From: an uncultured delta proteobacterium
GTDB lineage: Bacteria; Desulfobacterota; Binatia; Bin18
Direction of reading: 5' to 3'
NCBI GenBank assembly: GCA_963733195.1
Contig: CAVTCR010000062.1
Location: 192,001-256,000, forward strand
DNA: 64,000 nucleotides
Made by a program: the position numbers and the translations under genes. The notes below the pieces were generated by a model. It did no database searches. It worked only from the letters and a program-made list of their open reading frames with translations, and was not told the origin of the DNA. Positions 12,857 to 16,059 of this stretch are shown here, in pieces. Numbering within the stretch: position 1 is the first letter of the stretch; every line of letters begins with the position of its first letter.

Positions 12857-12926
12857 AGAATACGTTTGCCTGTGGTTCAGGGACAGTCAAAGAGGTTAAA
12901 TTATCGTTCAGTTTTCTGTTCAGATT
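12857..12926 (-). promoter_or_regulatory. TGAAC-repeat promoter cassette copy 5 (glgX promoter, divergent from wHTH-STAND regulator 1)
   Basis: GTTCA 12875, degenerate box ~12894, GTTCA 12906, 12918; TATTCT on - at 12862-12857. Confidence 0.78.
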
Positions 12927-12969
12927 TGTCACGAGGGATGTTGTTGAGAGGGGAAGAAAGGGAGTGGTC

Positions 12970-15900
12970 ATGGCATCAGGCCACGAGACATTAACCCAAC
13001 CAGCAGTGAGATCTGACCTCTACTTCGGCCCGTTTCGCTTAGAGGGCGCCAAACACCTGTGGCGGGGCGAGCATCTCGTAGAGATGCGGCCCCGGCCCCT
13101 GGCCGTGTTGCGCTACTTGGCCGGGCGGCCGGGCCAATTTATTAGCAGTGAGGAATTACTCAAACGCTTATGGCCGGGCATCTACGTGACCAAGACGGTA
13201 TTACGAGTCTGCGTGCATGAGATTCGACAAGCACTGGAGGAGGACCCGACCACTCCCCAGTTTATCGAGACGGTGGGCCGTCAAGGGTATCGGTTCATTG
13301 CCCCACTCGCCACTACCGCTCCTCCAGTTACCAGTTATCAGTTGGCAGTTGGCAGTTCGGACACAGCAGAAACGAAGCCCCCACAACTGGGCCTTGAGAA
13401 TTGGCAACTGGCCGACTCCCTTCGTCGGCCGTGCACAGGAACTGGCCAGGTTGCATGAGATGTTCGAACGCGCGCGGCATGGCGAGCGCCAGATCATGTT
13501 TCTCTCAGGCGAGTCCGGGATCGGGAAGACGGCATTGGTGGATTGCTTTCTCGACCAAGTGCGGAACCAGCGAGCCGTGCGGATTGGCCAGGGGCAATGT
13601 GTTGAACAGTATGGCTCTGGGGAAGCCTATTTACCGTTGTTGGAAGCGTTGGGACAGTTGTGTCGAGAGCCGGGTGGTGAGCAGGTGTTGGCCGTGCTGC
13701 ATCGCTATGCGCCGACGTGGCTGGCACAGATGCCTGGACTGCTCAAGGCCGGTGAACTGGAAGCAGTACAACGGCAAGGACAAGGCATCAACCGAGAGCG
13801 CATGCTGCGGGAGTTGGCCGAGGCTATTGAGGCTATAGCGGCTGACGCGGTGCTGGTGTTGGTCTTAGAAGACCTGCAATGGAGCGATCTCTCGACACTG
13901 GACGTCTTAGGGTATCTGGCGCAGCGGCGGCGGTCGGTGCAGTTGTACATCCTGGGCACGTATCGACCCGCAGACGTGGTGGCGGGTGGGCATCCATTGC
14001 GCCAGGTGGTGCAGGAACTGTACGGACGGAGGCAATGCGAGGAACTCGCGCTCGAACTCTTAAGCGAAGCGGAGGTGGAAGAGTATCTGCAGCAGCGCGC
14101 CGGTCGGCGGACCGCCATCGCTAAGCTCAGCCAGATGATTTATCGCCGAACGGATGGGAATGCGTTGTTCATGGTGAGTTTTGTGGACTATTTACTGCAG
14201 CACGGGCTGCTAACCGAAGACGAGGGTCAAGGCCAGCTACGGGCAGACCTCAGCGCCTTCAGGCGGCTCGTACCCACCAGCTTGCAGCGGATGATTCTAC
14301 GACAGATCGAGCACTTATCTGCGGACGAGCAACAGTTATTACACGTTGCGAGTGTGGGTGGGATGACGTTCACGGGAGCAGAGGTGGCGGGAGTGGTCGG
14401 AGGTCTACTAGAGGAAGTGGAAGACATGTGTGACCGTTTAGCCAGCAGGGAGCGGTTAATCGCAGTGGCCGGGCTTGCCGAGTGGCCGGACGGGACAGTG
14501 ACGGTGCAGTACCAGTTTCGCCACGCGCTCTATCAGCAAGTGTTATACGAGCAGATAGGACAAGCGCGGAGGGTGCGGCTCCACCAGCAATTTGGTGAGT
14601 GGAAAGAAGGGCGATATGGAGAGCGGACGGTAGAGATCGCCAGTGAATTAGCAGTCCATTTCACCGAAGGGCGGGAGTATCGCAGAGCGGTACAGTATCA
14701 CTACCAGGCGGCGAGAGATGGCGCTTCAGCGCAGTGCGTATTATGAAGCGAATGACCACTGCCAAAAGGGGTTAAAGCTGTTTGAACGGTTACCCGACAC
14801 ACTGGAGCACGTTCATTTGGAACTCGCCCTCCGCAAGCTGCTTAATACAGCGCTGGTCTCGACGCACGGCTATACAGCAGAAGAACTTGCTCAGAACCTC
14901 CGTCGAGCACAAGAGTTATGTCAGGAGACAGGGAATACAGTGGATCTTGTCCCTGTTTTGACTGGACTCGGTCGCCTGTATCAAGTGCGCGCTGCCCGCA
15001 TCGCAACAGAGGCAATCGCAGCGCAAGAATGCCGCCTTCTTGAGTCCGTTCACGACCCGCTGCTTGCCTTACAGTTGCACTCCCAACTTGCCAGCATCAA
15101 CGTGATGGGCGGGGCTCCGGTTCGTGCCCTAGCGCATCAGCAGCAAGCCCTCACTCTCTATGACGCCACGGCGCACCATGCGTTATTCCTGTCGTTTGGT
15201 ATAGATCCGATGGTGACTGTTTACGGCCTGGGGAGCTGGAGTGCATGGTTCGCTGGGTACCCCGAGCTCGCTCAGAGCTACCTGGAGAAGGGTTTGGCCC
15301 ACGCTGACTCTCTCTCTAATCTCTTCTCTAGGGTTCTGATCCGGGCAAACGGCGCGCAGCTATTCCTCTTCCGGCATGAACCTGATGCGGCGCTGTCATT
15401 GGCTCAACAGGGTTCTGCCTTAGCGCATGCACACGGGATCCCACAAGACGTCATCACAGGAAGTATCATGCAGAGTTGCATTGCGCTGCAACAAGGAGGG
15501 ACCGACAAAGAGATCGCAGCAATCAGTGAAGGACTTGAGCAGTATCGAATGACATGCGCTCAGCTTCACCTTCCCTTCTATCTTTCCGTCCTGGCCGAAG
15601 GGTATATGCAGCTGGGCAGACTTGAGGAAGGGCTGCAGGCCGTATGTGAAGCGCTACAGTTGTGCGAGGTACATTTTGATCGATACTGGGAAGCTGAGCT
15701 CTATCGGCTGAAAGGCGAGCTACTTCGTCTGAACGCGGAACGCAGAATGCAGAATGATGAACGGCAAAGCCAAGAACAAGGGACGAGCAGCATTCCCCAT
15801 TCCTCACTCATCATTTATCATTCATCGTTCTGCCGAGGCCGAAGCGTGTTTCCTCAAGGCCATCGAGATTGCTCGCACACAACAAGCAAAGTCACTAGAG

Positions 15901-16059
15901 CTGCGTGCGACGATGAGTCTCGCCCGTCTCTGGCAACGGCAAGGAAAGCACCGCCAAGCACACACTACGTTGTCTGCGATCTATGGCTGGTTCACGGAGG
16001 GTTTTGATACGAAAGACCTGCAGGAGGCGAAAGCGTTACTCGATGCCCTGCGAGAGTGA
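12970..16059 (+). CDS. Transcriptional regulator: OmpR/PhoB-type winged helix + STAND (AAA_16) ATPase + TPR; three apparent frameshifts
   Basis: FGPFRL...[12 protein letters not shown]...[12 protein letters not shown]; Walker A GESGIGKT; Walker [21 protein letters not shown]...[13 protein letters not shown]...[11 protein letters not shown]; ORFs 12964-13458, 13217-14746, 14718-16007, 15754-16059 join. Confidence 0.88.

Follow-up and report, generated by a model that had tools for sequence, protein, structure and literature searches.

Tandem TGAAC boxes as the probable operator-promoter of a receiver-less wHTH-STAND-TPR regulator clade

Which protein acts on the tandem TGAAC boxes that recur around a gene for a receiver-less winged-helix regulator? 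We addressed this question in the window, i.e. the whole 64,000-nucleotide stretch analysed (C62:192001-256000 in a 6.9-Mb assembly), which contains seven full copies of the TGAAC cassette and the gene in question, here called regulator 1. The repeats beside regulator 1 are probably its binding site, because most of its relatives carry repeats of their own, the letters of which vary with the recognition helix of the protein. From these comparisons we consider it probable that the cassette is the predicted operator-promoter of a clade of wHTH-STAND-TPR proteins lacking both a receiver and a BTAD domain, with regulator 1 as the likeliest full-length local activator. The observation itself is real, and its assignment at the level of the clade probably correct.

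The pattern TGAAC-N7-TGAAC, allowing at most one mismatch, has 21 matches in the window compared with a shuffle mean of 4.5 (maximum 10). A matrix built from the seven window copies found three further strong copies in the 6.9 Mb (scores 53-80; next score 14). The boxes of copy 5 lie 47 bp from the ATG of regulator 1 (12970), in agreement with the preliminary description, which had placed the start of the gene ~45 bp from this copy and copy 6 downstream; copy 6 lies ~775 bp past the regulator 1 stop and points back through a 64-aa gene (Table 1). The same description had given the four boxes a 12-bp spacing, which needs correction: the actual steps are 19, 12 and 12, and the second box of copy 5 is degenerate.

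Table 1. Coordinates and strands of the cassettes, promoters and genes discussed (window positions unless a contig is named).
Feature	Position	Strand	Remarks
Cassette copy 1	445..492	-	faces OmpA/glycine-zipper gene left of window
Cassette copy 2	2622..2669	-	faces Transgly_assoc gene, then prsW
Cassette copy 3	9819..9866	-	faces broken sulfatase and FGE genes; EAL gene on opposite side
Cassette copy 4	11837..11884	-	faces DUF1207 gene; -10 TAATAA without final T
Sigma-70-type promoter TTGCCA-16-TAGAAT	12834..12861	+	faces regulator 1; 1 found vs shuffle mean 0.4 (weak alone)
Outward -10 TATTCT of copy 5	12857..12862	-	points away from regulator 1; without -35
Cassette copy 5	12875..12922	-	TGAAC boxes, steps 12, 12, 19; three exact, second degenerate
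Regulator 1	12970..16059	+	wHTH (Trans_reg_C), AAA_16 STAND ATPase, TPR; ~1030 aa in four frames
Regulator 1 wHTH domain	13015..13308	+	recognition helix T4, R7, E12; one-residue hairpin deletion
64-aa partner gene	16568..16759	-	family match: none
Cassette copy 6	16833..16880	-	-10 TACTGT at 16815-16820; faces 64-aa gene
Back-to-back TGAAC pair	16909..16925	+	faces 17453 gene; weak third box, weak -10
Cassette copy 7	30333..30380	-	faces aquaporin gene; PAS kinase, FixJ-type regulator and regulator 2 on opposite side
Regulator 2	34404..36410	+	same clade as regulator 1; 668 aa, stops before most of TPR sensor
12/21-type GTTCA cassettes, G000	C70:22675; C76:49455, 58044; C87:1845, 8928, 18008		

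In a set of 31 distinct cassettes from this and related genomes (about four of the 12,21 variant included), taking a TAnnnT hexamer as reference, the boxes are located at -72, -60, -48 and -29. The -48 box is the weakest, being exact in 18 of the 31 cassettes, and conservation is limited to the boxes and the -10 element, the spacers being variable. Measured from the proximal box, the two best boxes are 31 and 43 bp away, or about three and four turns of the helix; in a sister group, steps of 21, 11 and 11 add up to the same 43 bp. These distances suggest that the spacing is not as 'non-helical' as it looks.

A second GTTCA cassette type, with three boxes at steps of 12 and 21, precedes secreted-protein genes in G000 and matches the arrays upstream of L055, L063, L065 and L069; the back-to-back pair in the window possibly represents a candidate cassette of this type. 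At C8:70265-70552 of G000, a regulator-1-type cassette points outward into another wHTH-STAND gene, the helix of which is different; this may be a regulatory cascade. The long-hairpin loci L036, L039, L040, L043 and L056 have GGTAA or GGTTA boxes, with the upstream box ~21 bp off.

On the outward strand, TAnnnT occurs at one fixed place in 25 of the 31 cassettes, compared with 14 of 31 on the inward strand, and an outward -35 with at least four of six matches is present in 1 of 29 cassettes. A fixed -10 without a -35, directed away from the regulator, points to the geometry of an activator site akin to that of AfsR and other SARPs. The boxes themselves suggest the same orientation: where helix position 12 is R, the box starts with G or A on the outward strand, as would be expected if the outward strand were the coding strand. 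Alternatively, the boxes could chiefly be repressor operators in the leaders of GTTCA-strand promoters, the outward -10 being a by-product of symmetry. Copies 3 and 5 indeed carry a TTGCCA-16-TA(G/T)AAT promoter facing inward through the boxes; at copy 5 its -10 overlaps the opposite -10, and the boxes would fall in its leader. The aquaporin gene is on the GTTCA-strand side in G014, and it is reported that the -10 elements of divergent promoters commonly overlap (bioRxiv 10.1101/2020.01.31.928960). Nevertheless, we regard this reading as improbable, since the inward hexamer is the rarer one, an inward -35 of four of six occurs at the background rate (3/29), the inward side of copies 1, 2 and 4 meets nothing but the tail of a convergent gene, and the family members with 11-bp arrays have a complete -35/-10 pair directed outward. 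In this 11-bp majority, the boxes lie just upstream of an ATGACT -35 in 65 of 90 arrays.

Taken as activator sites, the cassettes are directed towards genes for OmpA/glycine-zipper, Transgly_assoc, sulfatase, DUF1207, aquaporin, DUF937, FadL-type and chalcone-isomerase-like proteins and an isoamylase remnant, which we read as genes for the envelope and stress. On the outward side of copy 5, the gene at 12069-12598 is only a remnant of isoamylase (glgX), comprising N- and C-terminal pieces. Two paralogous alpha/beta-hydrolase lipoproteins (2927-4876 and 23305-25272) flank regulator 1, and a similar lipoprotein with an Lnb_N-like neighbour precedes a response regulator in L100.

The domain architecture previously assigned to regulator 1, a wHTH without a receiver followed by an AAA_16/STAND ATPase and TPRs, is borne out by Pfam matches to Trans_reg_C (62 bits, cut-off 26.2; frame 12970-13455) and AAA_16 (95 bits, above cut-off; frame 13217-14743). 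TPR_12 scores below cut-off in the pieces at 14718-16004 and 15754-16056. Neither a receiver nor a BTAD match was found by Pfam in any piece, and neither of the two regulators nor the intact relative L064 has a Response_reg match. In L064, Trans_reg_C ends at residue 109 and AAA_16, above cut-off, begins at 157, with no BTAD match; TPR_12 reaches 32.6 bits (cut-off 30.1). Residues G187, G190, G192, K193, D308, L309, D313, R338 and H524 are invariant across 100 full-length relatives, and Walker A and B are unbroken within frame 13217-14746 of regulator 1. NCBIfam matches to the family are all far below cut-off.

The four pieces of regulator 1 are collinear with residues 1-1028 of the 1029-aa L064, and regulator 1 is thus a single gene with three frameshifts, near 13409, 14715 and 15815. 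These breaks are probably assembly errors, because rpoB (in three frames), rpoC (in at least three) and 20 of 25 full-length family loci are broken too (dnaE is unbroken), and relatives repair the first break: base 13409 is missing from a related contig, and P0248 (95% identity, 147 aa) runs from the wHTH on into the ATPase. Only the first of the three breaks was seen repaired among the relatives' listed pieces. The sequencing runs searched for this strain matched at most 0.13 of words, and no near-identical full-length regulator 1 was found among longer proteins. The linker after the wHTH (13300-13410) and a TPR loop (15720-15840) consist of short-repeat sequence that varies among relatives.

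The genome contains 48 Trans_reg_C matches, mostly from the family of regulator 1. Upstream of 44 of these loci (the four weakest were dropped), strong 11-bp periodicity was found at 24, compared with 1.8% of 1500 generic upstream regions. A universal 12-bp period was rejected, the 12-bp signal being high at 4 of the 44. Among 205 family loci from this genome, its relatives and metagenomes (two of 207 were dropped for short upstream regions), the upstream direct-repeat array beats every shuffle at 128. The period is 11 bp in 78 of 82 arrays of the first set and in 71 of 72 of a fresh set, and the five-letter core differs array by array.

Box sequence is tracked best by the recognition helix (partial r 0.27, compared with 0.15 or less for other 13-residue windows of the wHTH) in a comparison that left aside 99 of the 205 arrays for scores below the cut. 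Counting helix positions from the Tyr preceding the recognition helix, and with L096 and L108 excluded as non-family, we set three rules on 104 loci: the first pairs K or R at position 7 of the helix with G as the first letter of the box (table counts 67/2/7/28), the second T, V, I or M at 4 with T as the third letter (35/8/2/59), and the third R at 12 with a pyrimidine as the fifth letter (14/1/6/83). The fresh test comprised 100 new regions, where 72 of 99 new wHTHs had an array and 27 were under the score cut. At these 72 loci the first rule gave 24/1/4/43 (p 6e-14; 67 of 72 agree), the second 5/6/4/57 (p 0.003) and the third 4/0/6/62, and both mismatched controls were null. A fourth candidate rule, G4 with G3, failed (p 0.78). 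Among the 37 fresh loci without a close training relative, the K/R7-G1 counts are 12/1/0/24. Helix-based prediction on the fresh loci was weakly better than prediction from the rest of the domain (3.01 vs 2.74 of 5, p 0.09).

Kinship was tested on the best tree (176 rows, 80 columns, unsupported branches). For K/R7-G1, 14.4 of 16 independent pairs go the same way and none the opposite way; for T/V/I/M4-T3, 9.8 are for and 0.6 against of 21 pairs; R12 has four independent pairs only, and the supported (starred) branches alone leave one or two pairs, too few for this test. The scorer used for the arrays has a preference for AT-rich tails and, within the box, for T as the second and G as the first letter. 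With a neutral register the rule tables came out the same, although the first detection step retained this bias.

By these rules, T4, R7 and E12 of regulator 1 predict G-T-T-n-purine, and its actual boxes are GTTCA. Outside the hairpin clade of regulator 1, GTTCA boxes are found with 10 of 19 proteins that have T4/R7/E12, compared with 0 of 145 others. In our alignment, the covarying positions 4, 8 and 12 match R199, V203 and R207 of RstA, which are described as reading bases, R207 on a coding-strand G (PMC4117788). The AfsR residues T88 and R92, for which base reading is likewise described, also fall on these helix positions by our alignment (PMC10936776). The covariation thus predicts that the tandem repeats are operators of the OmpR/PhoB type, the bases of which would be read by the recognition helix. 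These tests of the code cover the loci of this family, which was detected in 2 of 400 other genomes of the phylum. No account of the family's operators was found in a literature search that took in few subscription papers and no supplements. A wHTH code has reportedly been studied by Joyce and Havranek using SELEX.

The preliminary description had also named a FixJ-type protein as an alternative binder. In principle the cassette could be bound by this response regulator (33466-34128), by an ECF sigma factor or by some unrelated protein: TGAAC resembles ECF -35 elements, and the kinase-regulator pair adjoins copy 7, adjoins a cassette in G003 and shares the cassette contig in G013. This explanation is disfavoured and very improbable. 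Of the 6 other cassette genomes, which are incomplete, only 2 yielded the FixJ-type regulator; ECF promoters have a -35 AAC motif ~16-17 nt ahead of the -10, whereas the proximal TGAAC ends 12 nt ahead of the TA of the -10, which is too close, and the next box is 31 nt away; and neither candidate accounts for paralog-specific boxes over 176 loci. We give hardly any credence to an RNA element or a dispersed repeat unconnected with the regulator. The genome is repeat-rich and inward transcripts would carry the boxes, but Rfam gave no match in window positions 1-38000, conservation does not extend into the spacers, and the box letters covary with a DNA-binding helix.

Within the wHTH-STAND-TPR family, the GTTCA-type helix occurs in about seven proteins of this genome, and spacing narrows the candidates. 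An AAA-domain tree of 26 rows contains a 100/99 clade of regulator 1, regulator 2, C65, L054, L061, L062 and L064, and six of these seven have a 19/20-12-12 cassette upstream; regulator 2, the last gene of the kinase operon behind copy 7, has none of its own. The 12-bp step is found in all 12 short-hairpin arrays compared with 4 of 82 others, and steps of 21 and 12 occur with a long hairpin in C12, C18, L122, L044 and L138. In the sequences compared, the hairpin deletion, confined to one clade, accompanies the 12-bp steps and does not explain all of them. Oligomerisation of the STAND domain had been offered as the reason for the 12-bp step; this explanation is not needed, because the same STAND-TPR body serves 11-bp arrays in most paralogs, and ATP is reported to leave the oligomeric state of AfsR unchanged (PMC10936776).

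The taxonomic distribution of the cassette largely follows that of the clade. The exact cassette is present in 7 of 55 genomes of the bacterial family, including all five with the wHTH type of regulator 1, and two genomes of the same genus lack both. The expected co-occurrence of motif and orthologue holds to this extent; in the incomplete genomes G008 (74% complete) and G014 (84% complete), a cassette and no clade member was detected. The exact cassette was not found among 176 genomes of other families in the class, and a search of 400 genomes of the phylum gave chance-level matches in two.

Regulator 1 lies amid six of the seven window copies, has a cassette of its own, and its locus repeats the intact L064 layout of cassette, regulator, small gene and cassette; it is the best full-length local candidate on these sequence features. 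The earlier choice of regulator 1 as best activator candidate therefore stands for the clade, which covariation and co-occurrence make by far the best candidate binder, and less so for the individual protein, as paralogs share its helix: sequence alone cannot single it out from regulator 2 and C65. The family and operator could be as proposed, with regulator 2 or C65 as the working activator and regulator 1 a pseudogene or redundant. The three proteins fall in one clade and have near-identical helices. The short end of regulator 2 recurs in five of six cluster members and in several assemblies, and this early end is genuine; its G003 counterpart is a 130-aa wHTH alone (L101:4956-5348), near a cassette, and such sensor-less forms may be kept on purpose. 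The isolated effector domain of AfsR is reported to activate more strongly than the full-length protein, although AfsR without the TPR alone stays inhibited (PMC10936776). We judge this reading unlikely, if the least unlikely of the alternatives, given the position and L064-like layout of regulator 1 and the fact that frameshifts equally break rpoB, rpoC and most family loci. With regulator 1 as the preferred activator, cross-activation by regulator 2 and C65 is likely.

Two observations concern the surroundings of regulator 2. In G003, a single 543-aa frame (L101:3171-4802) joins the PAS kinase to the response regulator and lacks the kinase core. No TPR remainder follows regulator 2 in the window (36400-38804), where by Pfam the 37995 frame gives only a SnoaL-like end; the start of this frame is presumably a transposase remnant, judging from a motif.

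The closest known systems are AfsR and other large SARPs of Streptomyces, which, like regulator 1, combine an OmpR-type wHTH with a STAND ATPase and TPRs (PMC10936776, PMC7040171). Shared features, as far as described in these reports, are direct repeats reaching into the -35/-10 spacer, a poor -35 and base reading by the recognition helix; SARP repeats sit between -35 and -10 (PMC7040171), as does the proximal box of the cassette. The two systems differ in spacing, with two repeats at 11 and the proximal one 8 nt from the -10 in AfsR, and steps of 12, 12 and 19 with 12 nt to the -10 in the cassette. AfsR also has a BTAD, which regulator 1 lacks, and its described polymerase contacts come from the SARP domain (PMC10936776). 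In addition, regulator 1 differs in its TIGR03903-like STAND-TPR body, dozens of paralogs per genome and a dedicated small gene. The preliminary view that this protein architecture has no well-defined operator was overstated, as AfsR has one, though AfsR also contains a BTAD. By analogy, regulator 1 would work like AfsR and yet be neither a SARP, given the missing BTAD and other spacing, nor a response regulator.

OmpR/PhoB and the receiver-less CadC, ToxR and HilA have the wHTH fold and tandem repeats in common with regulator 1 (PMC4117788). Regulator 1 differs from them in having neither receiver nor membrane anchor and in its control by a STAND-TPR module. The HTH of MalT is of the LuxR type and C-terminal, whereas the wHTH of regulator 1 is N-terminal. 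MalT is likewise described as a STAND transcription activator with a TPR-type sensor and asymmetric box arrays (PMC4381067). The WhiJ-BldB-AbaA proteins of Streptomyces are unrelated and comparable only by analogy: in this family, paralogs come with small genes beside them, and the regulator binds intergenic direct repeats and activates its neighbour (PMC10294661).

In AfsR, the NOD and TPR domains are reported to inhibit and ATP binding to relieve this inhibition (PMC10936776), and by analogy such a switch is most likely also at work in regulator 1. The TPR/STAND part would keep the wHTH inactive until ligand and ATP bind. Binding of the wHTHs to the TGAAC boxes, in head-to-tail order at about -72, -60, -48 and -29, would then bring sigma-70 polymerase to promoters with a -10 and no -35, so that genes of the envelope and stress type would be turned on, as would the 64-aa partner. 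As the copy 5 boxes would lie in the leader of regulator 1, binding there probably represses regulator 1 itself.

We lean somewhat towards a broader picture, in which a genome would hold tens of BTAD-less wHTH-STAND-TPR one-component switches; a few helix residues would set the box letters, spacing would separate clades sharing the same letters so that no cross-talk arises, the window would contain all of one clade's local regulon, with the 64-aa partner as an undescribed component of the switch. The comparison assigns predicted operators to a large family annotated merely as 'wHTH/predicted ATPase' (2901 relatives of 8000 candidates scored), so that regulons could be read from the genomes of uncultured bacteria. 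The ~176 natural helix-box pairs open the recognition code of OmpR-type wHTHs to direct helix-swap tests, and the question arises how a STAND activator without BTAD acts at a promoter without a -35.

Next to 50 of 195 regulators the 64-aa gene lies divergently, at a distance of at most 420 bp, and it is never on the same strand; in this genome, 14 of its 17 copies are within 400 bp of a family wHTH. Relatives of the protein number 305 of 306 candidates. No family or fold was found for it using Atlas, Pfam, NCBIfam, Foldseek and VIA-align; its predicted fold has three strands and one helix (pLDDT 83; best structural match Z 4.3), and the predicted complex with residues 12-935 of L064 scores 0.07. 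A feedback inhibitor or a stand-in for the BTAD would be guesses at its role. On either side of this gene, the stretches at 16280-16500 and 17150-17400 are palindromic and repeat-like and are common to many contigs of other organisms.
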